Origin: an uncultured Lachnospiraceae bacterium
GTDB taxonomy: Bacteria > Bacillota > Clostridia > Lachnospirales > Lachnospiraceae
Length of the DNA: 45,484 nt
Reading direction: 5' to 3'
NCBI GenBank assembly: GCA_964488415.1
Contig: CAZAUP010000001.1
Location: forward strand, 1 to 45,484
Each line of letters begins with the position of its first letter. The stretch's first letter is position 1. Positions 7,404-29,867 of this stretch are shown here, piece by piece. The translations under genes were made by a program, and so were the position numbers. Below the pieces are notes generated by a model. That model was not told the origin of the DNA and searched no databases. It saw only the letters and a program-made list of their open reading frames with translations.

Positions 7404-8477
7404 ATGGATATGACATTACGTTGGTATGGAAGTAAGAATGACAGTGTAACCTTGCAGCAGATTCGTCAGATTCCGGGGGTGACCGGTGTGATTTCTGCAT
7501 TGCACGATATCCCGGCGGGCGAGCCGTGGCCGTATGAGGAGGTTATGAGGCTGAAGGAAGAGGTAGAGGCAGCCGGGCTTAAGCTTGCAGGCGTGGAAAG
7601 TATCAATATTCATGAGGATATTAAGCTTGGGGCACCGACCAGGGACAAGCTGATTGATAACTATATTACTTCCCTGGAAAGCGTCGGCAAGGCTGGAATT
7701 AAGCTTGTATGCTATAATTTTATGCCGGTCTTTGACTGGACCAGAACGGACCTTGCAATGCCGCTTGCAGACGGTTCCACTGTACTTGCTTATGATGGTA
7801 AAATGATTGAGGGCATTGACCCGGATGAAATGTTTGAGAAAATTGAGAAGGAGAGCGGCGGGTTTGTAATGCCGGGCTGGGAGCCGAATCGTAAAGATGA
7901 GATTAAGGAGTTGTTCCGGAAGTATAAGGGCATGACGCATGAGCAGCTTTTGGAAAATTATGGTTATTTTATCGGGAGAATAATGCCAACCTGCGAGAAG
8001 TACGGTATTATGATGGCAGTGCATCCGGATGACCCGGCATGGGATATTTTCGGTCTGCCGCGTATTGTAACAAGTGAGGAGGCACTGCTTAAGGTGGCAG
8101 CACTTCATCCGAGTAAGCTTCACGGCTTTACGCTCTGTACCGGTTCTCTCGGCAGCAGTCGTAAGAATGATTTGGTAAAGATTATTCGTAATCCAAAGAT
8201 TGCGGAACGTATTCATTTTGCGCATATTCGTAATGTAAAGTTTGAGACGGAGGATGAGTTCCATGAGAGTGCGCATCTTTCTTCCGAGGGTAGCTTTGAT
8301 ATGTATGAAATTGTGAAAGCACTTCAGGAAATGGGATTTGACGGTGTAATTCGTCCGGATCACGGAAGAATGATTTGGGGCGAGCAGGCAAGACCGGGAT
8401 ACGGCCTGTATGATCGGGCACTGGGCGCGGTTTATATTGAGGGGCTTTGGGAGGCTGTCAGGAAGTCCGCAAAGTAA
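7404..8477 (+). CDS. uxuA: Mannonate dehydratase
   Basis: MDMTLRWYG...IRQIPGVTGV N-terminus matches the UxuA pattern (E. coli MEQTWRWYG...). Start at ATG 7404 behind GGAGG 7391-7395. The ORF-track start 7389 is a TTG. Confidence 0.9.
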   Translation: MDMTLRWYGSKNDSVTLQQIRQIPGVTGVISALHDIPAGEPWPYEEVMRLKEEVEAAGLKLAGVESINIHEDIKLGAPTRDKLIDNYITSLESVGKAGIKLVCYNFMPVFDWTRTDLAMPLADGSTVLAYDGKMIEGIDPDEMFEKIEKESGGFVMPGWEPNRKDEIKELFRKYKGMTHEQLLENYGYFIGRIMPTCEKYGIMMAVHPDDPAWDIFGLPRIVTSEEALLKVAALHPSKLHGFTLCTGSLGSSRKNDLVKIIRNPKIAERIHFAHIRNVKFETEDEFHESAHLSSEGSFDMYEIVKALQEMGFDGVIRPDHGRMIWGEQARPGYGLYDRALGAVYIEGLWEAVRKSAK

Positions 8478-8512
8478 AACAGAAGATACGGATTCGCGGG
8501 AAGGAAAAAGGT

Positions 8513-11926: not shown

Positions 11927-12025
11927 TTTAACAGACAGGAGAAGAGCATAGGCGGGAGTGTCCGCAAGGGGACGCGGCTTTTCCGTTCTCCTGCATAAGC
12001 AATGTGTTGGAATAGGAGGTCATAT

Positions 12026-14644: not shown

Positions 14645-14659
14645 AGGAGGGTAAACACA

Positions 14660-15412
14660 ATGAAACTGGATAAGACAATTGCAGTAAGAGCAGCAAAGAC
14701 CGTTTATCAGGACGGTGACCGGGTAATTAAGGTGTTTAATGAGGATTATTCCAAGGCGGATGTCTTAAACGAGGCACTGAATCAGGCGCGTGTAGAGGAG
14801 ACCGGACTTTGTATTCCAAAGGTTTTAGAGGTTACAAAGCTTGACGGTAAGTGGGCGATTGTATCTGAGTATATCAAGGGTAAAACGCTGGCACAGCTGA
14901 TGCAGGAAAATCCGGAGAAGAAGGAGGAGTATCTGAAGCAGTTCGTTGAGCTTCAGATGCAGGTGCATGAAAAGCGTGCACCGGGCCTTAATAAGCTAAA
15001 GGATAAGATGAATCGCAAGATTTCTGAGGCAGAGCTGGACGCTACCACCCGTTATGAGCTGCATACCCGTTTGGAGGGTATGCCAAAGCATAATAAGGTA
15101 TGCCACGGAGATTTTAATCCGTCTAATATCATCATTTCCGATACGGACGGCAAGGCGTACATCATTGACTGGGCCCATGCAACGCAGGGGAATGCTTCTG
15201 CAGATGCGGCAAGAACCTATCTGCTGTTCTGGCTGGCAGGAGATACTGAGGGTGCAAAGAAGTATATGGAGCTGTTCTGCAAAATGAGCGATACTGCAAG
15301 ACAGTATATCGAGCGCTGGCTTCCGATTGTAGCTGCTTCGCAGTCTGTGAAGGGTAAGCCGGAAGAAAGACAGCTTCTGCTTTCATGGACGAATGTAGTA
15401 GATTACGAATAG
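14660..15412 (+). CDS. APH/choline-kinase-like phosphotransferase family protein
   Basis: 250 aa. Catalytic-loop motif HGDFNPSNIII and metal-binding IIDW. Only 15 nt after the adhE stop, with its own AAGGAGG. Confidence 0.7.
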   Translation: MKLDKTIAVRAAKTVYQDGDRVIKVFNEDYSKADVLNEALNQARVEETGLCIPKVLEVTKLDGKWAIVSEYIKGKTLAQLMQENPEKKEEYLKQFVELQMQVHEKRAPGLNKLKDKMNRKISEAELDATTRYELHTRLEGMPKHNKVCHGDFNPSNIIISDTDGKAYIIDWAHATQGNASADAARTYLLFWLAGDTEGAKKYMELFCKMSDTARQYIERWLPIVAASQSVKGKPEERQLLLSWTNVVDYE

Positions 15413-15567: not shown

Positions 15568-16719
15568 TTATTCTACGGTAACGGTAACGTCATCAATGTA
15601 GAAGGATGCGGTATCAGTTGCCTCGAAGTAGAGAATGCCTGCTACCGTGGTATCCAAAACCGTGTAGGTGCCGGTGTATTCTACCCATTCACCCGGAGCA
15701 ACGGTTTCTTCCTCGGTGCAGCCTGCAATGGTTGCGTAGGTAGACTGGGTGCCGTCCTTTTCCTCTAAGGAAGCCTTGATGGCAATCGGAGCAGCCTCGT
15801 CGTGCTTTGCCTTGAAGCTTACGGAAATGTTCTTTCCAGCGAGGTCGTAAGCGGTGAAGTCTGCCTGTGCGCCATTCCAGTTGGCGGTACGACCGGTTAC
15901 ATACATAGCACCGTCTACAACGGACGGAGTAGCATCGCCTCTTGCACCGAATACGCCTGTGGTTCCATCAGAGAAGTCGGTGGTGAAATTCTCGAACGGA
16001 AGCTTTTCAGCCGGCTCGTAATCCGGATTCGGATCAACGGAGCTTGCCGGGTTGTAGGAAACAATAACATTGTCCAGATAGAAATCAGCCTTGGCATTGT
16101 CTGGGGACTCAAAGTTCAGGGATGGAGCAAGTGCGTTTGCATAGACCGGAATGATGCCCTCCAAATGGGTCCACTCGCCACTCGGAATCTCTTCGCTGAC
16201 ACGCTCCGGCCAGCCCTGAGAGCCGTCCGGCTTGTTTACCTGTAAGGTACAGGAAATGGTCATTGGTGCGCCGCTTTCCTGATATACATCAAAAGAAACG
16301 AAAACCTCCTTGCCGGTTACGTCGTGGGCGGTGTAGGTGGCATCTGTGAAGGAAAGGGAAACACCGTGCCAGGTATCACCACGGCTGGTAACCTGTACAC
16401 TGCCTTCACTGTCCTTGCCGAAGGTGTTAGCCCAGAATGCAACACCGCTGCCTCTGGAACCAAAGTATAAGGTGTCTCTCTTTTTTTCTGCGGCAATGTT
16501 GTGAATGATCACCGGCTCGCTGCTTGGTGCTTCCGTCGGGGTTGGCTCTAAGGTCGGCTCGGCAGTCGGCTCAATAGTCGGCTCAGCCGGTACGTCGGTA
16601 GCGGTCGGCTCCGGAGTAACAGACGGCTTATCGCCGCCCTGCTTGTTACATGCTGTCATGGAAAACAGCATAGCAGTCATAGCGGAAACAGCAAGTAAGC
16701 TTTTCCATGTCTTTTTCAT
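15568..16719 (-). CDS. Surface lipoprotein with a Pro/Thr/Glu linker and two tandem CBM_4_9 (CBM22-like) carbohydrate-binding modules, no catalytic domain
   Basis: Start at 16719 (MKKTWKSLLAVSAMTAMLFSMTAC lipobox, GGAGGG RBS). Two roughly 150-aa repeats end in FYLDNVIVSY and FYIDDVTVTV, with conserved W/G positions typical of xylanase-associated CBMs. Confidence 0.65.
   Translation of the reverse strand: MKKTWKSLLAVSAMTAMLFSMTACNKQGGDKPSVTPEPTATDVPAEPTIEPTAEPTLEPTPTEAPSSEPVIIHNIAAEKKRDTLYFGSRGSGVAFWANTFGKDSEGSVQVTSRGDTWHGVSLSFTDATYTAHDVTGKEVFVSFDVYQESGAPMTISCTLQVNKPDGSQGWPERVSEEIPSGEWTHLEGIIPVYANALAPSLNFESPDNAKADFYLDNVIVSYNPASSVDPNPDYEPAEKLPFENFTTDFSDGTTGVFGARGDATPSVVDGAMYVTGRTANWNGAQADFTAYDLAGKNISVSFKAKHDEAAPIAIKASLEEKDGTQSTYATIAGCTEEETVAPGEWVEYTGTYTVLDTTVAGILYFEATDTASFYIDDVTVTVE
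16541..16611 (-). repeat. Coding 12-nt-period tandem repeat (G/A)GTCGGCTC encoding an EPTx linker
   Basis: Five copies on the + strand between 16541 and 16611. Translates on the minus strand as PAEPTIEPTAEPTLEPTPTEAP. Confidence 0.85.
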
Positions 16720-16750
16720 TTTAATACCCTCCAAATATGTAAAATAAAGT

Positions 16751-16777
16751 GTCGAATCTGCGATATACAAATTCGAC
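16751..16777. promoter_or_regulatory. Inverted repeat GTCGAAT-N13-ATTCGAC at the predicted transcription start of the CBM lipoprotein gene
   Basis: Perfect 7-bp arms at 16751-16757 and 16771-16777, a few nt downstream (minus-strand sense) of the TATAAT box. Confidence 0.35.
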
Positions 16778-16780
16778 CTC

Positions 16781-16809
16781 ATTATATCATTTCAAATGGA
16801 AAAGGTCAA
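16781..16809 (-). promoter_or_regulatory. sigma-A promoter TTGACC-17-TATAAT (minus strand) for the CBM lipoprotein gene
   Basis: The reverse complement of 16804-16809 is TTGACC and of 16781-16786 is TATAAT. The spacer is 17 nt. Confidence 0.6.
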
Positions 16810-16893: not shown

Positions 16894-17871
16894 TTAGGGA
16901 GAGGCAGTTGGTTTCCGGTTGTTTTCTTTGTAAAACTCTTTGAACTCTGTCGGGGTACATTCTTTAAACTTTTTAAATACCCGGTTGAAGGTGGAAATAC
17001 TGGAAAAGCCGGACTGAAGTGCAACCTCCGTAATGGGAAGGGAGGGATCCAGCAGTAAAATTTCCGCAGCCTTTAGTCTGCGAAGGCAAAGGTAATCATA
17101 AAAGGAGGTATCCGTAAACTGGCGAAAGAGTCTGGAAAAGTGGAATTTGGAAAAGCCTATTTGAGCGGCTGCGGTTTCCAGGGTAATATCTTCCATATAA
17201 TAATGTTCAATGTAATCAAATACTACGTTAAATTTTTCTACATATTTCCGCTGTTTGTTAGATGGTATGGCTGGCAGGGAGGAGGACGGAGCATCCTGAC
17301 TGTTGCGGGCAAGCAACACGAAAAACTGAATCAGCAGTGCAATACCGGAGGGCTCACCAAGAGAATCGTTACTTGTGTATTCCTCTGCGACCTGCAGAAG
17401 CAGTTCCTTTTCTTTCTTGTGGATTTCCGGCATGGTTTCCGGTGTAATCAGACAGGAGAGGGAGAGCAGGGAGAACAGTCTGGTGAATCCCCGGAACTTA
17501 TTTAAGGAGGATAGGTTAAACAAAAGAATCAGACGTGTTCCGTGCTTAGGAGCAGTGAGCTCGTGAAGCTCTCCCGGCGGGATGATGAATATGTCGTTCT
17601 CTCTCAGTTCATAGGTAGTGTGGTTCATGGTAACGGTATAGCCGTTTTCTAGCGGCATAATAATCTCTACCGTGGAGTGCCAGTGTAACGGAAAGCCTGT
17701 GGCTTCACGGTTAATCCAAAGAAAAATGGAGGAATCGTCCTCTGTATAGCTGACTCTTTCAAATGTACCGTTTACATTTCTGTGGCGGAAATTGTAATTC
17801 CGTTCACAGGATTTTTTTCGCAGTTCAATCCAATGTGAAATTTCTGCCGATGAGGTATTGTTATTTTGCAT
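16894..17871 (-). CDS. AraC/XylS-family transcriptional regulator (N-terminal cupin sensor plus C-terminal double HTH)
   Basis: Start at 17871 (MQNNNTSS, AGGAGGA RBS). Cupin-like HWHSTVEII...PPGELH. C-terminal HTH_18 region with FSKFHFSRLFRQ and GFSSISTFNRVFKK. Divergent from the 13-kb operon. Confidence 0.85.
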   Translation of the reverse strand: MQNNNTSSAEISHWIELRKKSCERNYNFRHRNVNGTFERVSYTEDDSSIFLWINREATGFPLHWHSTVEIIMPLENGYTVTMNHTTYELRENDIFIIPPGELHELTAPKHGTRLILLFNLSSLNKFRGFTRLFSLLSLSCLITPETMPEIHKKEKELLLQVAEEYTSNDSLGEPSGIALLIQFFVLLARNSQDAPSSSLPAIPSNKQRKYVEKFNVVFDYIEHYYMEDITLETAAAQIGFSKFHFSRLFRQFTDTSFYDYLCLRRLKAAEILLLDPSLPITEVALQSGFSSISTFNRVFKKFKECTPTEFKEFYKENNRKPTASP

Positions 17872-18009
17872 AATAGGAATCCTCCTTGTGTTATTGTGAA
17901 ATTTGACGAAAAACTTTGCACTGGTGCGACAATAAAAAACAAAAAGCGTCAATAAATCAAAAATTGCTATTTTTACACACCGGAAGGGGCGGGATAAAGT
18001 GCATAAAAA

Positions 18010-18035: not shown

Positions 18036-18064
18036 TTGAAATTATACAAATATCATAATATAAT
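18036..18064 (+). promoter_or_regulatory. Strong sigma-A promoter TTGAAA-17-TATAAT for the nine-gene operon
   Basis: -35 at 18036-18041, 17-nt spacer, consensus -10 at 18059-18064. This leaves an approximately 350-nt leader before ATG 18418. Confidence 0.65.
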
Positions 18065-18417: not shown

Positions 18418-21342
18418 ATGTCAAAAGGAAAGAAAATATTCCTTTCTGTAGCGGCTGTTGTTGCGGTTGCAGTGATTGTACTTATCATTGTATTCGGTAA
18501 CAAGGACACCAGCTTCAGAGAAAAGTATGAAGGGACAAATCTTGAAGTGACTGAAGGGGAGTTCGGACGAAGCGATACCTATGCTTTGTATCTGGATGCC
18601 CATGCAGATGCGGCAAGACCTCAGGCAGAAGAAATTGTAGTGGATTTGACCGCATATAATACGGCAAATGCAAAAAAGACTGAGGTAAAAAACAATTATG
18701 AAGGGGAAGATAAGGTTCTTTATCAGGAGGACAGCGGTTATACCGAGTGGCAGGTAAGTGTGCCGGAAAGCGGTATGTACCGTGTATATATTGAGTATTA
18801 TCCGGTAGAGTCCCGAGGGGTTAGCATGGAGCGCGCTTTCTATATTAATGGAGAGCTTCCGTTTTCGGGTTCCGATGCGTTGACATTCACGAGACGTTGG
18901 GCTGACGGCAGCGAGGTAAAGACCGACAATCAGGGAAATGATCGCCGGCCGACACAGGTGGAGGCACCGGATTGGTGTTCGGCATATTTCATGGACTACA
19001 TGGGATATTTTGCTGATCCGTATGAATATTATTTTGAAGCTGGAACCAGTACCATTGCTTTGGAGAGCGTGAACGAGCCGATGGCAATTCGTAAGCTTGC
19101 ATTGCGCCCTGTAACCGAAGTACAGACTTACGAGGAGTATCGTGCATCCCAGCCGAATGTAACCGGTGGCGTGGATTACATAAAGAAGTTCCAGGGTGAG
19201 AATTCGACGGTTCGTTCCGAGGCATCTCTCTATGCCCGTTCCGACCATTCCTCTCCGAATACGGAGCCATATAGTGTTACCGCGCAGAAGCTGAATTACG
19301 GCGGCGGCAGCAGCTGGAAAATTGCAGGTCAGTGGATTGAATGGGAAATTGAAGTGCCGGAGGACGGTTACTATAACATCAGTCTCAAGGCACGTCAGAA
19401 TGCCAGCCGTGGTGTTGTTTCCAACCGTATCATTTACATTGACGGCGAGGTTCCGTTTGAGGAGATGTCTGTTGTTTCGTTTAAATTCAGCAGCAACTGG
19501 GAAAACGTGGATCTGGCAGATGCGGAAGGCAATCCGTATGAGTTTTATCTGACTGCGGGTAAGCATACGCTTCGTATGGAGGTTACCTTAGGTGAGATGG
19601 GTACCATCTTAAATGACTTACAGGATTCCATGACGCGTTTAAATGAGATGTATCGTACCATTCTTGTATTAACCGGTGCATCTCCGGATAAGTACCGTGA
19701 TTACAAGATTGCAGAGATATATCCGGAGGTTATGGAAGGTCTGGAGTTAGAATACAAGCGTCTGTATGCACTGATTGATGAATCGGTAGAATATTCCGGT
19801 CAGCAGTCCGCATATCTTGCGGCAGTGCAGACCTTGGCAAAACAGATTGAGAAGTTTGTAAAAAATCCGGACAAGATTACAAAGCAGTTCGAAACCTTTA
19901 AGACGAATATCAGTGCACTTGGTACTTCTATTAATTCTCTTGCAGAGGGACCGCTTGACATTGATTACATTACCGTAACCGGTACAAATCAGGAGCCGGA
20001 GGAGGTAAAGAGCTCTATCTGGGCAAAGATTGCACATGAGGTTCGCTATTTCATTGCTTCCTTCACCGTTGACTATAATTCACTTGGTGATGTGTACGCA
20101 GGAGATGACTCGGAGGTAATCAATGTATGGATTCTGACCGGTCGTGACCAGAGCTCTGTGCTCAAGTCTCTTATCGATGAAATGTTTACACCGGAGACCG
20201 GTATTCCGGTTAACGTAAAGCTGGTACAGCAGCAGATGGTATTGAGTGCGACAATCGCAGGAACCGGTCCGGATATTGCGATTTCCATGCCGCAGAATGA
20301 GCCGGTAAACTACGCACTTCGTAATGCGGTAGAGGATTTGACCCAGTTTGAGGGCTGGGAAGAGCTGGTAGCCCAGTACAGCGACAGCTCTACGGCACCG
20401 TACTGGTTCGAGGGCGGCTTGTATGCGATGCCGGAGACACAGATTTTTAATGTAATGTTCTATCGTACCGATATTATGGAAGAGCTTGGCTTGGAGGTTC
20501 CGGAAACATGGGATGATTTAATTGATATGCTTCCGACCATCCAGCAGAACAACCTGGAGGTGGCAATTCCGTCTACGGAGCGTAAGTTTGGTAATATGGC
20601 TTCTCCGGACTTGTCTGCATTCATGGCTCTTTTGTATCAGAATGGAGGTTCCTTATATAATGAAGGAAACACCATGACAACGATTGACAGTGAAGCAGGT
20701 ATTAAGGCATTTGAAACCTACACGAGATTCTATTCTCACTATGGTCTGCCGACCACCTACGACTTTGCAACGCGTTTCCGTTCCGGTCAGATGCCAATTG
20801 GTATTCAGGACTATAACATTTACAACACATTAGCGGTTTCCGCACCGGAAATCAGAGGCTTGTGGGAGTTTGCATTGGTTCCGGGTATTGAGCAGGAGGA
20901 CGGCACGGTAGATCATTCCTGTTCTTCATGGGGCGTATGTACGATGCTGATGAAGAATGAGGAGCATTCGGAAGAGTTCAAGCAGAAGTGCTGGGAGTTC
21001 ATTAAGTGGTGGGCAAATTCCGAAACGCAGACCCGTTACGGTCGTGAGATGGAAGCAGTACTTGGTTCTTCCGCAAGACATACCACTGCAAACACGATTA
21101 CCTTTGATCAGCTTCCGTGGAATTCCAAGGAGATGGCTGTATTGAAGGAACAGTGGAGCTACACCGTAAAGATTCCGGAGGTAGCAGGTGGTTATTACAC
21201 AACCAGACATATTACGAATGCAGCACGTAAGGTTTATAACGACAAGGAAGACCCGCGTGAAACCCTGCGTGACTATGCAAAGACCATAAACGACGAGATC
21301 GAGAAGAAACGCCTTGAATTCGGTCTGCCGGTAGAGGAATAG
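18418..21342 (+). CDS. 974-aa membrane-anchored fusion protein: N-terminal TM helix, two CBM-like beta-sandwich repeats, a helical region, and a C-terminal extracellular solute-binding (CUT1 SBP) domain
   Basis: Start at ATG 18418 (MSKGKKIFLSVAAVVAVAVIVLIIVFG) behind AGGAAAGGAG. Internal repeat WQVSVPESGMYRVYIEYYP..SRGV...FYINGELPF...PYEYYFEAG versus WEIEVPEDGYYNISLKAR..SRGV...IYIDGEVPF...PYEFYLTAG. The C-terminal approximately 420 aa look like an SBP_bac_1-type binding protein. Two permease genes follow. Confidence 0.7.
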   Translation: MSKGKKIFLSVAAVVAVAVIVLIIVFGNKDTSFREKYEGTNLEVTEGEFGRSDTYALYLDAHADAARPQAEEIVVDLTAYNTANAKKTEVKNNYEGEDKVLYQEDSGYTEWQVSVPESGMYRVYIEYYPVESRGVSMERAFYINGELPFSGSDALTFTRRWADGSEVKTDNQGNDRRPTQVEAPDWCSAYFMDYMGYFADPYEYYFEAGTSTIALESVNEPMAIRKLALRPVTEVQTYEEYRASQPNVTGGVDYIKKFQGENSTVRSEASLYARSDHSSPNTEPYSVTAQKLNYGGGSSWKIAGQWIEWEIEVPEDGYYNISLKARQNASRGVVSNRIIYIDGEVPFEEMSVVSFKFSSNWENVDLADAEGNPYEFYLTAGKHTLRMEVTLGEMGTILNDLQDSMTRLNEMYRTILVLTGASPDKYRDYKIAEIYPEVMEGLELEYKRLYALIDESVEYSGQQSAYLAAVQTLAKQIEKFVKNPDKITKQFETFKTNISALGTSINSLAEGPLDIDYITVTGTNQEPEEVKSSIWAKIAHEVRYFIASFTVDYNSLGDVYAGDDSEVINVWILTGRDQSSVLKSLIDEMFTPETGIPVNVKLVQQQMVLSATIAGTGPDIAISMPQNEPVNYALRNAVEDLTQFEGWEELVAQYSDSSTAPYWFEGGLYAMPETQIFNVMFYRTDIMEELGLEVPETWDDLIDMLPTIQQNNLEVAIPSTERKFGNMASPDLSAFMALLYQNGGSLYNEGNTMTTIDSEAGIKAFETYTRFYSHYGLPTTYDFATRFRSGQMPIGIQDYNIYNTLAVSAPEIRGLWEFALVPGIEQEDGTVDHSCSSWGVCTMLMKNEEHSEEFKQKCWEFIKWWANSETQTRYGREMEAVLGSSARHTTANTITFDQLPWNSKEMAVLKEQWSYTVKIPEVAGGYYTTRHITNAARKVYNDKEDPRETLRDYAKTINDEIEKKRLEFGLPVEE

Positions 21343-21355: not shown

Positions 21356-22291
21356 ATGGGCAGTATTTTATCGCTGTATTTCAGCAAAAAGAAAAGAGAT
21401 TTCCGTGTAGCTTGGAAGAAGGCTAAGATGGCGAAGAGTTGTTACTTGTTCGTTCTTCCTTATGCTGTGTTGTTTACTTTGGTTATTGTAGTGCCGATTA
21501 TCATGTCTCTGGTACTCAGCTTCACCTACTATAACGTATTGGAGATACCGAAATTTGTAGGTCTGCAGAACTACATTAACCTTATCCTGGCGGATGATGT
21601 ATTCTTAACCGCAGTAAAGAATACACTTGTTTTGGCAGTTATTATCGGACCGGGCGGTTATATTGCATCGTTCCTGTTCGCATGGCTGATTAACGAGCTG
21701 CCGCGTTATTTAAAGGCGGTTGCGATTGTGTGCTTCTATGCACCGTCTATTTCAGGTCAGGCGTATACGATTTGGCAATTGATTTTCAGTAACGATGCTT
21801 ACGGTTGGGCGAACTCCCTGCTTGCGGAGTTCGGTCAGGAACCAATCCTTTGGCTTTCCAATCCGGATTATATGCTGACCGTTGTAGTTGTTGTTTCCTT
21901 ATGGATGAGCTTGGGTAATGGTTTCCTTGGCTTCGTAGCAGGTTTGCAGGGCGTTGACCGTTCCCAGTACGAGGCAGCCTATGTGGATGGCATTAAGAAC
22001 CGTTGGCAGGAGCTTTGGTATATCACGCTTCCGAGTATGAAGCCGATGCTGCTCTTTGGTGCAATCAACTCCATTACCACCGCATTTGGTGTATCCGATA
22101 TCCCGGAAGCACTTTGCGGTATGCCGAGTACGGACTATGCGGTACACACCATGGTAACGCACCTGAAGGATTATGGTCAGTTACGTTACGAAATGGGTTA
22201 TGCGTCCGCAGTAGCAACCATTCTCTTCCTTATCATGCTTCTTTGTAATAAATTTATTCAGGGTCTGTTAAACAGAGTCGGAACAAACTAA
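21356..22291 (+). CDS. CUT1 sugar ABC transporter permease (MalF/UgpA-like), set A
   Basis: 311 aa, 6 TM. EAA loop EAAYVDGIKNRWQELWYITLPSMKP. Confidence 0.9.
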   Translation: MGSILSLYFSKKKRDFRVAWKKAKMAKSCYLFVLPYAVLFTLVIVVPIIMSLVLSFTYYNVLEIPKFVGLQNYINLILADDVFLTAVKNTLVLAVIIGPGGYIASFLFAWLINELPRYLKAVAIVCFYAPSISGQAYTIWQLIFSNDAYGWANSLLAEFGQEPILWLSNPDYMLTVVVVVSLWMSLGNGFLGFVAGLQGVDRSQYEAAYVDGIKNRWQELWYITLPSMKPMLLFGAINSITTAFGVSDIPEALCGMPSTDYAVHTMVTHLKDYGQLRYEMGYASAVATILFLIMLLCNKFIQGLLNRVGTN

Positions 22292-22348
22292 GAAGCAAAG
22301 AGCAAAGGGTACGTCCAAAAGGGCGAAGTATAGAAAAGGAGAGAAACA

Positions 22349-23209
22349 ATGGCAAAGATAAAAAAGAAAAAGCGTCAAAATCGGTCCCTGGGGGGCGATA
22401 TCGCAGTTTATTTGGTATTGATTTTGTTCGGCGCATTCATGGTAATTCCGCTGATATACGCCGCATGTCTGGCGTTTAAGCCGTTGGACGAGGTGTTGAA
22501 GAATCCGCCGGACATTTTGGTAAAGAACCCGACGTTAGATAACTTCTCTGACCTGTTTATTGTAATGGGTCAGAACTGGGTGCCGTTTACCAGATATCTG
22601 TTTAACACACTGTTCATTACTGCGGCAGGTACGGCAGGACAGCTGCTTGTGGCATCCATGGGTGCGTATGTGCTTGCGAAGTTTGATTTTCCGGGCGGAA
22701 AGAAATTCTTCAAAATGGTTACTACCGCAATCATGTTCAACGGTTACATTACACAGATTCCGTTGTATCTGGTTATGGCAAAGTTTGGCTGGGTGGATAC
22801 CTATATTGCACCGATTATTCCGGCAATTGCTGCTCCGATGGGTCTCTTCCTGATGAAGCAGTTCATGGAGGGTATTCCGGATTCCCTGATTGAAGCTGCA
22901 AAGATTGACGGTGCGAAGGAATGGGGGATTTTTACAAAAATTGTCATGCCGAATGTTAAGCCGGCATGGCTGACCCTCATTATCTTTTCGGTGCAGTCAC
23001 TGTGGAGTAATCAGCAGTCTACCTACATTTACTCTGAGGAGTTAAAGACACTGCCGTATGCGTTGTCTCAGGTGCAGGCCGGCGGTATTGCACGTGCCGG
23101 TGCAGGTGCAGCGGTATCTCTGGTTATGATGATTGTGCCGATTGGCGTATTCATTTTCTCTGAGAGTAACATTCTGGAGACTATGGCAAGCTCCGGTATT
23201 AAAGAATAG
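22349..23209 (+). CDS. CUT1 sugar ABC transporter permease (MalG/UgpE-like), set A
   Basis: 286 aa. EAA loop EAAKIDGAKEWGIFTKIVMPNVKP. Confidence 0.9.
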   Translation: MAKIKKKKRQNRSLGGDIAVYLVLILFGAFMVIPLIYAACLAFKPLDEVLKNPPDILVKNPTLDNFSDLFIVMGQNWVPFTRYLFNTLFITAAGTAGQLLVASMGAYVLAKFDFPGGKKFFKMVTTAIMFNGYITQIPLYLVMAKFGWVDTYIAPIIPAIAAPMGLFLMKQFMEGIPDSLIEAAKIDGAKEWGIFTKIVMPNVKPAWLTLIIFSVQSLWSNQQSTYIYSEELKTLPYALSQVQAGGIARAGAGAAVSLVMMIVPIGVFIFSESNILETMASSGIKE

Positions 23210-23225: not shown

Positions 23226-24758
23226 ATGAAATTAAGAAAGAAAATTGTAGCAGCTCTCCTTGGTGCGGTGACAGTGCTCAGCATTTGTCCGACCGGAGTT
23301 GCACAGGCAACCGAAGTGAACACATATACATACAATTACGATTTCTGGGGAATCGAGTATGAGTCTCCGGATGCATACAAGGCAACCACCTTTGTTACGG
23401 GAGAGAGTCTTGGTACGACGGAGCTTAAAGCACCGCAGGGTATGTATATTCGTGATGACAGGGTGTATATCGCAGATACCGGTAACAGCCGTATTCTTGA
23501 GCTTCAGGTAAACGGAGCAGAGCTTACGCTGGTACGTGAAATCAAGGAGTTTAAGGGAGATGCGGAGGTAACGACCTTTAATTTGCCGCAGGATGTATTT
23601 GTAACGGCAGATGGAGAGCTCTTTATTGCAGATACCGAGAATCAGAGAGTGGTTCATTTGGATAATGACTTAAATCTGATAAAGTTTATTACCCAGCCGG
23701 TGGATGATCCGACGGTAGACGTGACACTTTCCTTCCTTCCGACGAAGGTGGTGGCAGACCGTGCAGGCCGTGCGTTTGTACTGGTAAAGAGTGTTAATAA
23801 GGGCTTTATGGAGTTTGAGGCAAATGGTGAGTTTATCGCATATGTAGGCGCAAATGAGGTAGTGTTCAATATGGCGGATTACATCAAGAAGGTGTTCTCT
23901 ACCAAGGAACAGCGTGCGCAGATGGAGAGCTTTACGCCGACGGAGTACAATAACCTCTATATTGATGGCAATGGTTTCGTTTATTGTACCACATCGGTAT
24001 TCGATGTGGGTGCGTTGAAATCTGACGCGGCAAAGCCGATTCGTAAGCTTAATTCGCTCGGAAAGGATATTTTAATCAAAAATGCAGAGTATCCGCCGAT
24101 TGGTGATTTACAGTGGGATAATGTAGCCGGTATGGACGGACCGTCCCGTCTTGTAGACATTACGGCATTCGAGAATGAAATGTATTTTGCAATTGACCGT
24201 GTCAGAGGCCGTATTTTCGGTTATGACGAGCAGGGAAATCTGCTGTATGCATTCGGCGGCCCGGGCAACAAGCTCGGATACTTCCAGAATCCGGTGGCGA
24301 TTGACCATATGGGAACGGATTTGTTTGTATTAGACTCCACCTCCGGCGGTCTGACCAGATTCCAGTTAACCGAATTCGGACAGTTAATCTACAATGGTCT
24401 GGAGCAGTATGACATCGGTGAGTATGAAAAGTCTGCGGAGTACTGGACTGAGGTTCTGGAGTTAAACGGGAACTACGACCTTGCGTATATCGGTATCGGC
24501 AGAGCACTTCTCGGACAGGGAAAGTACGAAGAAGCGATGCAGTACTTTGAAGTAAAGCGCGATGATGATAATTATTCTCGTGCATGGAAGTATTACCGTA
24601 AGGAGTGGATTGAGGAAAACTTAGGATATGTTATTATTGTCCTTGCAGTCCTTATTTTAGTACCGGGTGTAATTAAGCTGGTGAAGAAAATCAAGAAGGA
24701 GGCGCGAGAAGAGTATGAATTTCAAATTGAATTGGTACGACGTAATAAACAAATCTAA
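23226..24758 (+). CDS. Secreted NHL-repeat beta-propeller protein with TPR-like repeats and a C-terminal TM anchor
   Basis: Start at ATG 23226 (MKLRKKIVAALLGAVTVLSICPTGVAQA signal peptide, AGGAGG RBS). NHL-like blades (VYIADTGNSRILEL, LFIADTENQRVVHL, LFVLDSTSGGLTRF). TPR-like EYEKSAEYWTEVLELNGNYDLAYIGIGRALLGQGKYEEAMQYF. TM helix GYVIIVLAVLILVPGVI followed by a basic tail. Confidence 0.65.
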   Translation: MKLRKKIVAALLGAVTVLSICPTGVAQATEVNTYTYNYDFWGIEYESPDAYKATTFVTGESLGTTELKAPQGMYIRDDRVYIADTGNSRILELQVNGAELTLVREIKEFKGDAEVTTFNLPQDVFVTADGELFIADTENQRVVHLDNDLNLIKFITQPVDDPTVDVTLSFLPTKVVADRAGRAFVLVKSVNKGFMEFEANGEFIAYVGANEVVFNMADYIKKVFSTKEQRAQMESFTPTEYNNLYIDGNGFVYCTTSVFDVGALKSDAAKPIRKLNSLGKDILIKNAEYPPIGDLQWDNVAGMDGPSRLVDITAFENEMYFAIDRVRGRIFGYDEQGNLLYAFGGPGNKLGYFQNPVAIDHMGTDLFVLDSTSGGLTRFQLTEFGQLIYNGLEQYDIGEYEKSAEYWTEVLELNGNYDLAYIGIGRALLGQGKYEEAMQYFEVKRDDDNYSRAWKYYRKEWIEENLGYVIIVLAVLILVPGVIKLVKKIKKEAREEYEFQIELVRRNKQI

Positions 24759-25389
24759 AGGAAGAAAATTCTTAGACTCCCTCCGCTATGCGCTGTATGT
24801 AATTACACATCCGTTCGACGGCTTTTGGGATTTGACGCATGAAAAAAGAGGTACTGTTGCATCTGCACATGTATTAGTATTTTTATTCTTTATGACAAAC
24901 CTTTGGAGTATGCGTTATTCAAACTTTATGTTTAACAATGTGCTTTGGGAAAAGGTTAACATTTGGATGCAGATTGCGGGCAGCATTGCTCCGATAGTAA
25001 TTTACTGCGCGGCGAACTGGTGTCTGACCACGCTGTTTGACGGTAAAGGACGGTTCTCGGATGTATATATCGGAACGGCGTATGCGTTGACTCCGTATAT
25101 TATTCTGACTAATATTGCTACCATTGTCAGCAATTTTGTAACCGTGGAAGAAGGAGCATTCATCACCATTTTCAACGGATTTGCATTAATCTGGTGCGGT
25201 TTCCTGATTCTGGTTTCCGTTATGCAGATTCATGACTATTCTCTTGGAAAGGCTGTGCTTGCGATTATCGCTTCTGTAGCGGGCATGATGATTATCGTAT
25301 TCTTGTTGCTGCTGTTTTTCAGCTTAATCAGTGACGGTATTGCATTCTTTGTATCGATATACAAGGAAATCATGTTCCGCGTGTACTAA
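24715..25389 (+). CDS. Yip1-domain-like 5-TM membrane protein
   Basis: 224 aa. THPFDGFWDL N-terminal motif followed by five hydrophobic helices. The start overlaps the upstream gene by 44 nt. Confidence 0.6.
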   Translation: MNFKLNWYDVINKSKGRKFLDSLRYALYVITHPFDGFWDLTHEKRGTVASAHVLVFLFFMTNLWSMRYSNFMFNNVLWEKVNIWMQIAGSIAPIVIYCAANWCLTTLFDGKGRFSDVYIGTAYALTPYIILTNIATIVSNFVTVEEGAFITIFNGFALIWCGFLILVSVMQIHDYSLGKAVLAIIASVAGMMIIVFLLLLFFSLISDGIAFFVSIYKEIMFRVY

Positions 25390-25408: not shown

Positions 25409-27949
25409 GTGAAACGAATTGGTAAAATGTTAGTATTCCTTCTTTTGGCAGGAAGCCTGTGTGCCTGTGGTGAGGACGAAGTAGAAAAGGAAATTGTGAT
25501 TCGCTCTTACGATGAGGAAGTACACGGTGCAGAGGAATATAAACTGGAGAATGATGATTTGATTTTTGAGCTGGATCCTTCCACCACCTATTTTACGGTA
25601 ACGCAGAAGTCTACCGGCAAGGTATGGCGTTCCAATCCGGAGGATGGTGCAAACGATCCGAATGCGGATGCTGCAGGTAAAAAGTATTTACAGTCAACAC
25701 TTTTAATTGAGTACAATACTGAGAATGGCGTAAATACGATTTTGAACAATTACGAGTTCAGTATTGCCAACGGCATTTACGAGCTGGAGAAGACGGAGGA
25801 TGAAATCCGCGTATTATACACAATCGGTAAGGTTACAAAAACCTTCTATGTGCCGCCGGCAGTTCCGGAATCCCGTATGATGGAGTTCTACGAGAAGATG
25901 GAGCGTTCGCAGCAGAAGAAGATTGATACCTACTATCGCCGCTATGACATTAACAATCTGTTTGCAACTGATGATAAGTCAGAGCTTTTAGAAACTTATC
26001 CGGATCTTGCAAACGAGCGTGTTTATGTAGTCCGCGAGGGTACGAAGGAGTACCTGATGCGTCAGATGGAGGACATTTTCGCATCAGTAGGCTATACGGC
26101 TGATGATTATGCGGAGGATAAGGCTCGTTACAATGTTTCCACGCAGGAGAATAAAGCAATTATTAACCTGACCTTGGTTTATCGTATCGAGGACAATAAG
26201 CTTGTGGTAGAGATTCCGCATGATGAAATCGAGTACAAGTCGGATTATCCGCTGACAAAAATATCCCTGCTTCCGTACTTCGGTGCAGGCAGCATGGAGG
26301 ATGAAGGCTACATTCTTGTTCCGGAAGGCTCCGGCGCAGTTATTAACTTCAACAATGGTAAGTCCGAACAGTCCGCATATTACGCAGATGTATACGGCTG
26401 GGATTATGACCAGAAGCGAGAGGCAATCGTAGACGAAACAAGAGTGGCAATTCCGGTATACGGAATTGCAAACGGGGACAGCTCTTTTGTGGCAATCATG
26501 GAAGAGTACAGTACCATCGCTACGATTCAGGCAGACGTGAGTGGTCGCCGTCACAGCTTCAATTCTGCATATGCCACCTACGAAATTGTTCACGGTGATA
26601 CCATGGATATTTCCGCAAAGTCCGACCGTACCATTATGGCGTTTGAAAAGAATGTTCCGGAGGGCAGTACGGTACAGACCTATACCTTTATTGAGGGCAC
26701 GGATTATGTAGATATGGCTGAGGTATATCGTGAATACTTACAGGAAAAGTATCCGGAGCTTACGAAGGTAGAGGAAACAGAGCTTCCGGTTGCAGTGGAG
26801 TTTATTGGTGCGATTGACCGTATCAAGCAGATTCTTGGTATGCCGATTAAGCGTCCGGAGGTGCTGACCTCGTTTGCAGATGCAAAGACAATTTTAGAGG
26901 ATATGCTGGCAACCGGCTATGAGAACATTTCCGTGCGTTATAGCGGCTGGATGAACGGCGGTGTGACCCACTCCATTCCGAAGGACATTGATTTGACCAG
27001 CGGCATGGGCGGTAAAAAGGCACTGAACGCATTGATGGATTATGCAAACAGCAATGATATCGATATTTATTTAAACGGTCGTGTGCAGTTTGAGTACGAT
27101 AGTGATTTGCTTGACGGCTTTATTCGCTCCAGAGATGCGGCAAAGTACATCAGCCGTGAGATTACGGAGCTGTACGCATACTCCAACATTACATTTGGTG
27201 AGCTGTCCACAGATCGTCAGGAAACGTACCATCTGCTCCGTCCTAGTGTTTGCGTGAAGCTGATGGACAATTTGGCAGAGGCGGCTGAAAAGTATAAGGC
27301 AGGTGTTTCCTTCGAGGAAGTAGGCTATCTTCTCAGTGCAGATTATAATCCGAGAAGAACCGTGACCCGTGAGGAATCTATGAAGATGCAGATGGAGACG
27401 TTGGCTGAAATCAAGGCAAAGGGTACTCCGATTATGCTTTCTGCAGGTAATGAATATGCACTTGCCTATGCAGATATTATTGTAAACGTAGATTTAGAAG
27501 GAAAGGATTATCAGCTTCTTGACTATAAGGTTCCGTTCTATGAAATTGCAGTGCATGGTTTGATTAATTACACCGGCGATGCCATCAACCTTGCAGATGA
27601 TGCGTTGGATATTGTGCTTAAGTCTGCTGAGTCGGGTGCCGGTCTTTCCTTCACATTTATGAGCGAATCGTCGGATATATTGCAGAATACCGAGTACATG
27701 GAGTATTTTGCTGCCGATTATACGCAGTGGAAGGAAAGAGCAGCCGGTTATTATGTCCGTTATAAAGAAGAAATGGCGGGCTTAAACAACCAGTTTATCG
27801 TAGACCATGATGTGCTTGCAGCGGGAGTTACGGCAACTACCTATGAGGACGGTACCGTAGTATACGTAAACTACAATACAACAGCTTACGAGGACGGTGC
27901 TTTATCCGTTCCGGCAAGAGATTATCTGGTAGAAAGGAGCGGGAACTAA
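25409..27949 (+). CDS. 846-aa lipoprotein of unknown function (from memory it resembles the family catalogued as DUF5696; unverified)
   Basis: GTG start behind AAAGGAGGA. Lipobox LLAGSLCAC. No motif I can assign to a known GH/PL/CE family. The stop codon directly abuts the next permease start. Confidence 0.6.
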   Translation: MKRIGKMLVFLLLAGSLCACGEDEVEKEIVIRSYDEEVHGAEEYKLENDDLIFELDPSTTYFTVTQKSTGKVWRSNPEDGANDPNADAAGKKYLQSTLLIEYNTENGVNTILNNYEFSIANGIYELEKTEDEIRVLYTIGKVTKTFYVPPAVPESRMMEFYEKMERSQQKKIDTYYRRYDINNLFATDDKSELLETYPDLANERVYVVREGTKEYLMRQMEDIFASVGYTADDYAEDKARYNVSTQENKAIINLTLVYRIEDNKLVVEIPHDEIEYKSDYPLTKISLLPYFGAGSMEDEGYILVPEGSGAVINFNNGKSEQSAYYADVYGWDYDQKREAIVDETRVAIPVYGIANGDSSFVAIMEEYSTIATIQADVSGRRHSFNSAYATYEIVHGDTMDISAKSDRTIMAFEKNVPEGSTVQTYTFIEGTDYVDMAEVYREYLQEKYPELTKVEETELPVAVEFIGAIDRIKQILGMPIKRPEVLTSFADAKTILEDMLATGYENISVRYSGWMNGGVTHSIPKDIDLTSGMGGKKALNALMDYANSNDIDIYLNGRVQFEYDSDLLDGFIRSRDAAKYISREITELYAYSNITFGELSTDRQETYHLLRPSVCVKLMDNLAEAAEKYKAGVSFEEVGYLLSADYNPRRTVTREESMKMQMETLAEIKAKGTPIMLSAGNEYALAYADIIVNVDLEGKDYQLLDYKVPFYEIAVHGLINYTGDAINLADDALDIVLKSAESGAGLSFTFMSESSDILQNTEYMEYFAADYTQWKERAAGYYVRYKEEMAGLNNQFIVDHDVLAAGVTATTYEDGTVVYVNYNTTAYEDGALSVPARDYLVERSGN

Positions 27950-28876
27950 GTGAAAGCAAGAGCAAAGAAACCTAGAAATTTACGCAGACGCAATGCGATT
28001 GCGGGATATCTTTTCATCAGTCCTTTCATTATCGGATTTGTGGCATTTATGTTAAAGCCGATGTTTGAATCCTTCCGGATGAGCCTTAGCCGTGTTACGG
28101 TAAATGCTTCCGGAAGCGGAGAGCCGTTTGTAATGGATTTTATTACAAACTTTAAGGAATCGAATTACTTTTATGCATTCTTACGAGACCCGGAATTTAA
28201 GAACCTCTTAGTCGAGACGCTAAAGGATATGGCAATTCAGGTTCCATCCATTTTGGTGTTCAGCTTCTTTATAGCGTTGCTGTTAAATCAGAATTTCAAG
28301 GGAAGAGGCTTTGTAAGAGCAGTATTCTTCCTGCCGGTAATTTTGGCATCTGGTATTTTAGTCGGTCTGGAAACCGATAATGTGTTAATGTCGGGTATGA
28401 AGGATGTTATTTCTGAATCGTCCGGCGCTACCATTACCGCTACACTGGAGGAAATTTTGAAAACGTCCGGTGTCGGGGGAAAGATTTTGGACCCGGTATT
28501 TACGATTATTGATTCGGTATATGATATTGCACTTGCTTCCGGTATTCAGATTATTATCTTTATTTCCGGTTTGCAGACGGTGTCGCCGAGCATGTACGAG
28601 GCAGCAAAGATTGAGGGCTGCAGCGCATGGGAAAGCTTCTGGAAGATTACCTTCCCGATGGTAAGCTCCATGATTCTCGTAAATTTGATTTACTCTGTAG
28701 TTGACTTCTTTATGCGAACAGATAATGAAGCCATGGAATTGATTACCGAAAAGATTAACCCGGAAATGAACTACGGTTTGGGTTCCGCAATGGCGTGGAG
28801 CTACTTCGGCATTGTAGTGGTAGTCTTAGGTATTCTTGTAGCGATTATTTCGAAGAAGGTGTACTATTATGAGTAA
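27950..28876 (+). CDS. CUT1 sugar ABC transporter permease (MalF-like), set B
   Basis: GTG start immediately after the upstream TAA (GGAG 10 nt upstream). EAA loop EAAKIEGCSAWESFWKITFPMVSS. Confidence 0.85.
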   Translation: MKARAKKPRNLRRRNAIAGYLFISPFIIGFVAFMLKPMFESFRMSLSRVTVNASGSGEPFVMDFITNFKESNYFYAFLRDPEFKNLLVETLKDMAIQVPSILVFSFFIALLLNQNFKGRGFVRAVFFLPVILASGILVGLETDNVLMSGMKDVISESSGATITATLEEILKTSGVGGKILDPVFTIIDSVYDIALASGIQIIIFISGLQTVSPSMYEAAKIEGCSAWESFWKITFPMVSSMILVNLIYSVVDFFMRTDNEAMELITEKINPEMNYGLGSAMAWSYFGIVVVVLGILVAIISKKVYYYE

Positions 28877-29867
28877 AGCGAAAGTAGTGAAAAGAAAAGA
28901 CTTCTGGGAGCGGAATAAAAAGACACACGGCTATCTTTTAAAGAAGAAAATCGGTGAGTATTCTTTCCGTGTGATTAGGGCATTGCTTCTGTTCGGCTTA
29001 TGCTTTTTGATTCTGCAACCGCTTATTAACAAGTTATCCGTCAGCTTTATGGAGCAGGAGGACTTGTATGATGCAACTGTTATTTCCATTCCGCGTAACT
29101 TTACCCTTGGGAACTACAGGCTGGTAGATTACCTGATTGGTTACTGGGAGTGTATGTGGAATTCCTTATGGGTGTCCTTTGTGGTTGCGGTGCTTCAGGT
29201 GATTGCTTGTACCCTTGTAGGCTACGGCTTTGCAAGATTTAAGTTTCCGTTTAAAAGCTTTTGGTTCGGTTGCGTAATTCTTGTTATTATCGTGCCGCCG
29301 CAGACGATTATGAGCTCCCTGTACTTAAACTTCCGTTATTTTGATGTATTCGGCATTATTAAGCTGATTACGGGACATACGCTGAACCTTCAGTCCTCCA
29401 TGGCACCGTACCTGATGATGTGTGCTACCTGTATGGGTCTGAAGTGCGGTCTGTACATTTATATGCTCCGTCAGTTCTTCCGTGGTATTCCGAAGGAGCT
29501 GGAGGAGGCAGCTTATGTGGATGGCTGCGGTACGCTTGCAACCTTCTTCCGTATCATGCTTCCGGATGCAAAGTCCATGATTACATCCTGCTTCCTGTTT
29601 GCCTTTGTATGGCAGTGGACAGATTCCTTCTATACGAAGATGTTCCTCGGAAACATGGAGGTATTGACCAAGGGTCTGAACTCTATTGCAGGTCGTCTGG
29701 ATAATTATGTGGAGCAGATGGGTATGGGTACACTTGCAAGTGAAGCATTCCTTCAGCAGACCATTTCAACCGGTATTTTAATGGCAATAGCACCGTTGCT
29801 TATCTTATATCTCTTCGCTCAGAAGGGTTTTGTAGAGAGCTTGAGCCAGACCGGTATTAAAATGTAA
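28869..29867 (+). CDS. CUT1 sugar ABC transporter permease (MalG-like), set B
   Basis: The start overlaps the upstream stop (ATGAGTAA). EAA loop EAAYVDGCGTLATFFRIMLPDAKS. Confidence 0.85.
   Translation: MSKAKVVKRKDFWERNKKTHGYLLKKKIGEYSFRVIRALLLFGLCFLILQPLINKLSVSFMEQEDLYDATVISIPRNFTLGNYRLVDYLIGYWECMWNSLWVSFVVAVLQVIACTLVGYGFARFKFPFKSFWFGCVILVIIVPPQTIMSSLYLNFRYFDVFGIIKLITGHTLNLQSSMAPYLMMCATCMGLKCGLYIYMLRQFFRGIPKELEEAAYVDGCGTLATFFRIMLPDAKSMITSCFLFAFVWQWTDSFYTKMFLGNMEVLTKGLNSIAGRLDNYVEQMGMGTLASEAFLQQTISTGILMAIAPLLILYLFAQKGFVESLSQTGIKM

Follow-up and report, generated by a model that had tools for sequence, protein, structure and literature searches.

The 45,484-nucleotide (nt) stretch analyzed here (the window; positions 1 to 45,484 of contig CAZAUP010000001.1, assembly GCA_964488415.1, from an uncultured Lachnospiraceae bacterium) contains, at 18418-21342 on the forward strand, an open reading frame (ORF) that runs from ATG to stop, encodes 974 residues, and is preceded by AGGAG 8 nt 5' of the ATG. 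Its product, here termed big SBP, is a giant solute-binding protein (SBP) in which a module comprising two repeats with the fold of carbohydrate-binding modules (CBMs) of families 6 and 35 (CBM6/35) precedes an SBP domain of the CUT1 type, and its gene is the first gene of a conserved nine-gene cassette (Table 1). A longer reading from a TTG at 18358 was rejected: homologues start at MSKGKK, and the ribosome-binding site precedes 18418.

The C-terminal domain of big SBP, at residues ~565-967, is a CUT1 SBP by sequence and by structure comparison. Over residues 581-874, Pfam returns SBP_bac_1 at 79.4 bits (cutoff 26; E 6e-22) and SBP_bac_8 at 73.5 bits (cutoff 27), and a phmmer search of the PDB matches the domain to Listeria innocua Lin1841 at E 1e-14. 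The AlphaFold2 model shows the two-lobe alpha/beta fold of periplasmic binding proteins, and Foldseek matches it to CUT1 SBPs including 5ysb, 3uor, and 5ci5 at target template-modelling (TM) scores of 0.72-0.82 (E ~1e-19). Big SBP thus shares with the characterized CUT1 SBPs Lin1841 (5ysb) and Clostridium thermocellum CbpB (7x0l) the two-lobe fold, the Pfam families, and the MalF/MalG-type neighbours. It differs from them in what surrounds the domain. A length of 400-550 residues and, in single-membrane bacteria, lipoprotein anchoring are typical, though not strictly defining, of CUT1 SBPs; big SBP, with 974 residues, a signal-anchor, and no lipobox, shows neither trait. Whereas CUT1 SBPs (TC 3.A.1.1) are lipoproteins or periplasmic proteins of 400-550 residues, big SBP adds a 530-residue rigid module and a signal-anchor and, unlike Lin1841 and CbpB, is encoded within a nine-gene cassette that also specifies a second importer.

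The N-terminus of big SBP begins with MSKGKK, after which come 21 uncharged hydrophobic residues without Cys; residues 3-26 form a helix in the AlphaFold2 model; and a lipobox-like motif is absent from 72 of 73 full-length homologues in an alignment. The likeliest reading is a signal-anchor, with cleavage by signal peptidase I after VFG a less likely alternative. The cytoplasmic part comprises only ~2-6 residues before the membrane helix, with no output domain. On the other side of the helix, a spacer of ~7 low-confidence residues (residues 27-33; predicted local distance difference test score, pLDDT, <50 over residues 22-29) leads to a helix at residues 34-37, and the first beta-sandwich starts near residue 86. 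The anchor differs by lineage, being a signal-anchor in Lachnospiraceae, a lipobox-like FVSSC in Spirochaetales, and a cleavable-looking signal peptide in Halanaerobiales. Halanaerobiales and Spirochaetales possess an outer membrane, and, because their relatives of big SBP combine a signal peptide or lipobox with an outer membrane, those relatives are probably periplasmic, where they would meet only soluble oligosaccharides. In single-membrane Lachnospiraceae, big SBP is predicted to be surface-exposed on its membrane anchor.

The region between the anchor and the SBP domain contains an internal duplication. BLASTP aligns repeat 1 with repeat 2 at 27% identity (E 6e-13), and profile-profile comparison (hhalign) aligns them at 98.8% probability (E 1e-16); repeat 1 alone carries an additional conserved insert of ~25 residues (DNQGNDxRPTQVE, residues ~160-186). 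In profile searches, repeat 1 matches a C. thermocellum CBM35 at E 3e-4, and native repeat 2 matches a glucanotransferase CBM35 (5x7g) at E 5e-6. In structure searches with Foldseek, an AlphaFold2 model of residues 30-562 matches only CBM-type beta-sandwiches: that is, the isolated CBM35/CBM6 modules 2w1w (TM-score 0.73), 2vzp (0.74), 2w47 (0.70), and 5fui (0.71), the CBM35 domain of cycloisomaltooligosaccharide glucanotransferases, and the tandem CBM22 structure 4xup. These matches surfaced with the separate model of residues 30-562; the search with the full-length model returned SBPs only. No solved structure is similar to the N-terminal arrangement as a whole (Foldseek query TM-score <=0.2). 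We conclude that both repeats have the CBM6/CBM35 beta-jelly-roll fold. Comparison with known CBM35/CBM6 modules (5x7g, 3wnp, 2w47, 2w1w, and CsxA 2vzp) shows a shared framework, G-x-W-x-x-x-x-V-x-x-x-G-x-Y with a last strand x-L-D-x-[IL], and also differences: repeat 2 is split by a 117-residue helical bundle, repeat 2 has Leu in place of a ligand-contacting Asn, and repeat 1 carries the conserved 25-residue insert. Pfam matches of repeat 1 to Golvesin_C and DUF2135 (E 0.0025-0.006) fall far below the cutoffs.

The bundle that splits repeat 2 comprises four long helices at residues 392-508 in the AlphaFold2 model and is followed there by a strand at residues 513-522 and a further helix at residues 534-550; one of its loops contains the conserved motif PDxxRDY (residues 423-429). 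Joining residues 245-391 to residues 509-527 yields an insert-deleted chimera in which the CBM_6 score of repeat 2 increases from 20.9 bits to 28.3 bits (cutoff 28.9 bits), profile coverage extends from positions 14-109 to positions 14-124 of 125, and a CBM_35 Pfam match appears. When 21 chimeras of this design, taken from divergent relatives, are combined into a profile, the match to the 5x7g CBM35 improves from E 5e-6 to E 1.1e-9, and the alignment reaches the last strand ('qpLelDyilv' vs. 'gaINLDSLTL'). Because removal of the insert improves both the CBM_6 score and the CBM35 profile match, we conclude that the bundle is inserted into the second beta-sandwich ahead of its last strand. In single-member Pfam scans, only 2-3 of the 21 divergent insert-deleted chimeras give a CBM match at E <=0.01, so that it is the profile and structure comparisons, rather than Pfam thresholds, that support the assignment of the family to CBMs. 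The helical region itself (residues 390-562) has no relative in the PDB by profile (best E 0.08, to designed coiled coils), and Foldseek returns nothing specific for it. Weak Pfam matches of the full-length protein to BLOC1_2, CENP-Q, ATG17_like, and xenorhabdolysin were dismissed as coiled-coil noise.

The models score highly both for the full-length protein (pLDDT 88.5 and predicted TM-score, pTM, 0.83, from 73 homologues) and for residues 30-562 (pLDDT 90.2, pTM 0.87). On the basis of the pTM values of 0.83-0.87, the ectodomain is predicted to be a defined, rigid, multi-domain body rather than a set of loosely linked modules. We regard it as secure that big SBP carries a rigid accessory module of CBM6/35 origin; this module takes up the N-terminal ~530 residues and is specific to the family. 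Most of this architecture had been anticipated in an earlier, sequence-only reading of the window. That reading described an N-terminal transmembrane helix and no lipobox, in contrast to the other SBPs of the window, and the homologues and the model agree, as do the lipoboxes of the small SBP at 30029 and of an unrelated SBP at 92. It placed the repeats at residues 72-230 (nt 18631-19107) and 255-392 (nt 19180-19593), which is correct, and all the motifs that it quoted as their signature occur in both copies. Its helical segment of ~150 residues corresponds to the four long helices together with the helix beyond the strand. Its C-terminal CUT1 SBP is borne out by the Pfam score of 79 bits, the TM-scores of 0.72-0.82, and the adjoining pair of permeases with EAA motifs. 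Its description of the repeats as CBM-like holds at the level of fold, with CBM35 profile matches at E 1e-9 to 3e-4 and TM-scores of 0.70-0.74.

Big SBP belongs to a large family. In a scan of GTDB species-representative genomes (one genome per species), at least 575 relatives are encoded; the best 80 of these matches are all full length, are 51-87% identical to big SBP, and come nearly all from Lachnospiraceae, including Acetatifactor, Butyrivibrio, Eisenbergiella, Lachnoclostridium, Anaerocolumna, Anaerotaenia, and Mobilitalea. A search with the N-terminal module (residues 62-562) against 1.84 billion representatives of 50%-identity clusters gives 2142 matches at E <=1e-3 and 964 at E <=1e-30, most of them in proteins of 930-1000 residues with the module at the same position. 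Among the matches listed, all 138 representatives of at least 900 residues contain an SBP domain, and the N-terminal module is therefore a dedicated SBP accessory. The fusion of an SBP to CBM-like domains is thus confirmed and widespread; the description of it as an unusual receptor architecture, made from the sequence, applies among characterized SBPs but not in nature, where the architecture is common (at least 575 GTDB matches; 964 clusters). Named members of the family, including those of Spirochaetales and Halanaerobiales, are annotated only as "extracellular solute-binding protein," and NCBIfam holds no curated model for big SBP or for three of the proteins encoded with it (Yip1, DUF5696, and SBP2).

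The decisive context for big SBP, absent from the sequence-only reading, is a cassette of nine genes, all on the forward strand, in the order big SBP, permease 1, permease 2, NHL/TPR protein, Yip1 protein, DUF5696 protein, permease 3, permease 4, and SBP2. The intergenic gaps are -44 to 57 nt, except for 161 nt ahead of the ninth gene, and the permease 1 gene starts 13 nt past the big SBP gene. To assess conservation of the cassette we compared the nine proteins by tblastn with 83 related loci. None of the ~60 Lachnospiraceae loci with 10 kb of downstream sequence lacks any of the nine genes or departs from their order and strand; cassettes were found in Anaerocolumna and Anaerotaenia too; and wherever a related locus examined continues beyond the big SBP gene, a pair of permeases with EAA motifs lies directly 3' of that gene. 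The cassette is also present in distant relatives, in which the N-terminal module is ~32-40% identical to that of the window: in Spirochaetales, with the small SBP relocated upstream and a GH26 gene nearby; in Halanaerobiales, with a GH38 gene upstream; and in three unclassified metagenome lineages, two of which adjoin GH20, GHL10, and PIG-L genes. In the Halanaerobiales relative, the NHL and Yip1 proteins are encoded by one continuous 715-residue ORF (L085:14878-17025) with the layout signal peptide, propeller, TPR-like region, membrane helix, and Yip1. The cassette contains no gene for a histidine kinase or an anti-sigma factor.

All four permeases contain an EAA motif (EAAYVDG and EAAKIDG in permeases 1 and 2); as CUT1 membrane components, permeases 3 and 4 show unusual divergence, with Pfam BPD_transp_1 at E 8e-6 and 2e-10. 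SBP2 is the fastest-diverging member of the cassette, 28-80% identical across the related loci by tblastn and 28-53% identical where big SBP is 52-58% identical, and the substrate specificity of the cassette may reside in it. The orthologues of the DUF5696 protein are lipoproteins or membrane-anchored, and their profile matches the GH129-type structures 8rzk and 5opq at E 2.5e-14 to 5.5e-14 in three collinear stretches, although the match to the catalytic-barrel stretch alone is weak (E ~0.02), as is that to NagBb (5wzn/5wzq; E ~0.1). We take 5opq (a 3,6-anhydro-D-galactosidase) and 5wzn (an alpha-N-acetylgalactosaminidase) to be members of family GH129. Invariant acidic residues of the DUF5696 protein include D645, D705, and E741. 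These similarities make DUF5696 a candidate for an undescribed glycosidase family.

Table 1. Features of big SBP, its cassette, and the regulatory-like sites around it (positions in the window).
Feature	Position	Strand	Basis or remark
Giant solute-binding protein (big SBP), 974 residues	18418..21342	+	Pfam, PDB phmmer, AlphaFold2, Foldseek
Signal-anchor transmembrane helix, residues 3-26, without lipobox	18424..18495	+	Sequence, AlphaFold2, homologues
Beta-sandwich repeat 1, CBM6/35-like, residues ~72-231	18631..19110	+	BLASTP, profiles, Foldseek
Beta-sandwich repeat 2, main part, CBM6/35-like, residues ~255-391	19180..19590	+	Profiles, insert-deletion test
Four-helix insertion in repeat 2, residues ~392-508	19591..19941	+	AlphaFold2, profiles, insert deletion
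Last beta-strand of repeat 2, residues 512-522, PLDIDYITVTG	19951..19983	+	Aligns with CBM35 'INLDSLTL' strand
CUT1 solute-binding domain, residues ~565-974	20110..21339	+	Pfam, PDB phmmer, Foldseek
ABC permease 1, MalF/UgpA-like, EAA motif	21356..22291	+	Pfam BPD_transp_1
ABC permease 2, MalG/UgpE-like, EAA motif	22349..23209	+	Pfam BPD_transp_1
Secreted NHL beta-propeller/TPR protein with C-terminal membrane anchor, 510 residues, from ATG of MKLRKK	23226..24758	+	
Yip1-family multipass membrane protein	24715..25389	+	44-nt overlap with NHL/TPR gene (24715-24758)
DUF5696 lipoprotein, 846 residues, distant GH129-type relative	25409..27949	+	
ABC permease 3, divergent, EAA motif	27950..28876	+	BPD_transp_1
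ABC permease 4, divergent, EAA motif	28869..29867	+	BPD_transp_1
SBP2, ordinary small lipoprotein SBP, 471 residues	30029..31444	+	Pfam; lipobox
AraC-family regulator, cupin sensor domain and HTH_18, divergent	16894..17952	-	Pfam; same position in 38/83 loci
Promoter-like site TTGAAA-17-TATAAT, 11/12	18036..18064	+	AraC/big-SBP intergenic; consensus match only
Terminator-like hairpin, 13-bp, GC-rich	36258-36289		Between convergent GH3 and mecA; consensus match only

The results establish securely that big SBP is the receptor of a CUT1 ATP-binding cassette (ABC) importer, that it carries a rigid module derived from CBM6/35, and that it stands in a conserved cassette plugged into different glycan loci. 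What we infer about function reaches beyond fold and synteny. Our preferred reading, to which we assign a probability of roughly 0.6, is that big SBP is the membrane-tethered receptor of a CUT1-type ABC importer of oligosaccharides, the permeases of which are encoded at 21356-23209, with a rigid CBM-like module, in a conserved nine-gene operon. Big SBP would bind oligosaccharides and deliver them to the permeases, and the repeats may themselves bind carbohydrate. We favour a role for the accessory module either in holding long soluble oligosaccharides by the binding cleft, in which case it would widen the binding surface of the receptor for long, decorated, soluble oligosaccharides, or in docking the receptor to its partners in the cassette. 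According to this reading, the cassette would be a membrane-associated unit for glycan capture, trimming, and uptake: the DUF5696 protein would trim the bound glycan, two importers would take up the trimmed products, the second, divergent importer would use its own small lipoprotein receptor, and an ATPase encoded elsewhere would power both importers. In the window, the cassette would be plugged into a glucuronoxylan locus (GH67, CE15, GH43, two GH10, GH3, and AraC genes), and its substrates here are probably xylan-derived.

Several observations weigh against this reading. The scores of both repeats stay below the Pfam gathering thresholds of CBM_6 and CBM_35, and repeat 1 gives no match to either family in the Pfam scan. 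In CBM6 and CBM35, the Asn of an N-x-D motif in the last strand touches the ligand at the loop site; in repeat 2, the corresponding residue is Leu513, as placed by alignment of 'QPLxxDY' with 'AINLDSL' of 5x7g, and Leu is at least 90% conserved at this position across the family. In repeat 1, N219, for which correspondence to the motif is putative, is kept in close homologues only and not in the wider family. The loops of repeat 2 hold the conserved residues D276, N293, W300, and W309, and these residues and PDxxRDY are conserved whatever the family of the neighbouring glycosidase, a pattern no less compatible with a structural or protein-protein function than with the binding of glycans. The nine-gene cassette contains no ATPase gene. 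In the literature searched, we found no paper on DUF5696, on the nine-gene combination, or on a fusion of CBM35-like domains to an SBP. Strict synteny, one gene fusion of NHL to Yip1, and the precedent of YknW, a Yip1 protein that modulates assembly of an ABC transporter complex (PMC4887032), suggest that the cassette proteins may assemble physically, a conjecture to that extent. The bolder proposal that the cassette encodes a previously unrecognized, physically assembled machine of the cytoplasmic membrane for capture, trimming, and import, the proposed parts of which are the giant receptor, the NHL/TPR propeller joined to Yip1, the tethered GH129-related glycosidase, and the two ABC importers, is one that we hold tentatively.

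The docking of the receptor onto polymer, as proposed from the sequence, retains two of its foundations, the CBM6/35-type fold and the true CUT1 SBP. In its present form, this proposal makes the repeats functional CBMs that tie the cell to insoluble or polymeric xylan and pass oligosaccharides to the fused SBP domain and the permeases. A locus for xylan degradation with GH10, GH43, GH67, and CE15 genes would suit such a role, as would exposure at the surface of a single-membrane cell, and a sugar site could be made up of D276, N293, W300, and W309, which lie in loops of repeat 2. However, a rigid, compact ectodomain is predicted, and the bundle is inserted in repeat 2; the spacer of ~7 low-confidence residues past the anchor provides little reach; the canonical CBM6/35 Asn is replaced by Leu513 in repeat 2; the probably periplasmic relatives in Halanaerobiales and Spirochaetales would lie beyond the reach of insoluble polymer; and the module is similarly conserved next to genes for xylanases, a mannanase, an alpha-mannosidase, and a hexosaminidase. 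We consider docking onto polymer improbable.

Some of the same observations point in another direction, in which the N-terminal module would be a non-carbohydrate scaffold that fixes the SBP into a supercomplex with NHL/TPR-Yip1, DUF5696, and the permeases, and the CBM fold would be a relic. The loss of the canonical Asn from repeat 2, the predicted rigid architecture, and the conservation of residues including PDxxRDY irrespective of the neighbouring glycosidase family would all be expected of a scaffold, and the module is always fused to an SBP, never free, in the 138 representatives of at least 900 residues among the matches listed. Strict synteny with the NHL/TPR, Yip1, and DUF5696 genes across phyla and the action of YknW on the assembly of a transporter complex are likewise consistent with it. 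CBM6/35 folds can, however, also bind ligand on the concave face, so that loss of the loop-site Asn is not decisive, and the conserved aromatic and polar loop residues would equally suit a sugar site; we regard a pure scaffold as rather unlikely. A role for big SBP as a sensor, in which the SBP-like domain would detect extracellular glycan in order to regulate the locus, would have a parallel in the SBP-fold sensors of Clostridia, such as CuaD of Ruminiclostridium cellulolyticum (PMC10384115), and a gene for an AraC regulator lies divergently upstream. We rejected this role, which is highly improbable, on the ground that big SBP lacks a cytoplasmic domain: its ~2-6 cytoplasmic residues leave no room for output. 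AraC regulators detect ligands inside the cell, the two permease genes with EAA motifs follow the gene closely here and in the other loci examined, and the cassette lacks the kinase or anti-sigma factor that might relay a signal.

Comparison with known systems places our preferred reading, a CUT1 receptor with an accessory module, among established kinds and shows where it departs from them. Big SBP belongs to a known kind, the receptors of ABC importers, and may be more than that if the cassette is a physical machine. Known CBM35/CBM6 modules are appended to enzymes; to our knowledge, no characterized CBM35/CBM6 module is fused to a transporter receptor, and we found no such fusion in the literature. 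In Gram-positive polysaccharide utilization loci, for example those of Roseburia and Eubacterium, glycoside hydrolases are encoded along with a regulator and an ABC transporter, and the locus in the window, with AraC, ABC importers, GH10, GH43, GH67, GH3, and CE15, resembles them; in no described locus type did we find the nine-gene core (giant SBP, NHL/TPR, Yip1, DUF5696, and second importer). Sus-like systems of Bacteroidota comprise SusC/D, surface glycan-binding proteins, and a surface glycosidase around a TonB-dependent outer-membrane transporter. The analogy with the cassette would be one of function only: that is, a co-encoded glycan-binding module, tethered glycosidase, and transporter that may act as one complex. 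The proteins are unrelated, and ABC importers take the place of the TonB-dependent transporter. YknWXYZ of Bacillus, like the cassette, encodes a Yip1-family protein together with parts of an ABC transporter, but YknYZ is a MacB-type exporter with a membrane-fusion protein, whereas the cassette encodes type I importers with SBPs. To GH129 (5opq, 5wzn), the DUF5696 profile is alike in the three collinear stretches and only weakly alike in the barrel region.

Lachnospiraceae are major degraders of fibre and producers of butyrate in gut and rumen, and capture and import of complex hemicellulose fragments are far less understood in Lachnospiraceae than in Bacteroidota. The results define a family of giant receptors and an invariant cassette present in hundreds of species, from the gut and from the environment, in which the receptor has been labelled only as an extracellular SBP. 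With the cassette defined, oligosaccharide uptake in Firmicutes can be studied through a concrete, testable unit, DUF5696 becomes a candidate for a new glycosidase family, and a marker is at hand for annotating glycan-utilization loci in metagenomes. If the cassette is a physical machine, it would be a counterpart of Sus-like complexes that is widespread in gut Lachnospiraceae and present also in Halanaerobiales and Spirochaetales.

The gene content around the cassette (GH67, UxuA, CE15, GH43, a protein with two CBM_4_9 domains, AraC, two GH10, and GH3) points to a glucuronoxylan locus. In the flanks of the 83 related loci, GH43 genes occur in 38, a divergent AraC gene in 38, and GH10 genes in 13. 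The total of promoter-like sites in the intergenic region between the AraC and big SBP genes is no higher than in shuffled sequences. Downstream of the cassette, the hairpin at 36258-36289, which looks bidirectional, is the only convincing terminator, and the transcription unit may therefore span 18418 to about 36225.

Components of the cassette vary in some distant loci. In the two hexosaminidase-linked cassettes (L086:16240-19488 and L087:16082-18442), the propeller protein is enlarged to 786-1082 residues with RCC1/WD40-like repeats, big SBP to 1152-1275 residues, and the DUF5696 protein to 1050-1093 residues; the components appear to expand in step in these loci. In Halanaerobiales, one permease 3/4 orthologue is on record without a Pfam match.

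Other genes of the window show further features. A 404-residue protein with two CBM_4_9 domains is encoded at 15568-16782 on the reverse strand, between genes for an APH-like kinase and AraC; it has orthologues at the same position in the four closest loci (L004, L005, L011, and L039) and may serve the locus as a separate xylan-binding protein at the surface. The CE15 glucuronoyl-esterase homologue (8447-10072, forward strand) has a GCE_fung domain at residues 221-475 behind a long N-terminal extension of ~200 residues, and its listed ORF, with a TTG start, overlaps the end of uxuA. The carbohydrate genes are broken up at 12002-15412 (forward strand) by genes for an AdhE-type bifunctional aldehyde/alcohol dehydrogenase (880 residues) and an APH-family kinase (250 residues), which separate GH43 from the cassette. 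The tandem GH10 xylanase genes at 31522-33913 (forward strand) are listed as overlapping ORFs (31522-32925 and 32879-33913), the first of which has an 82-residue N-terminal extension ahead of the catalytic domain. A separate ABC system at 92-4018 (forward strand), not related to the CUT1 cassette, comprises a BPD_transp_2 permease and an ATPase with an ABC_sub_bind-family binding protein on either side; the sugar importers are unlikely to draw on this ATPase.

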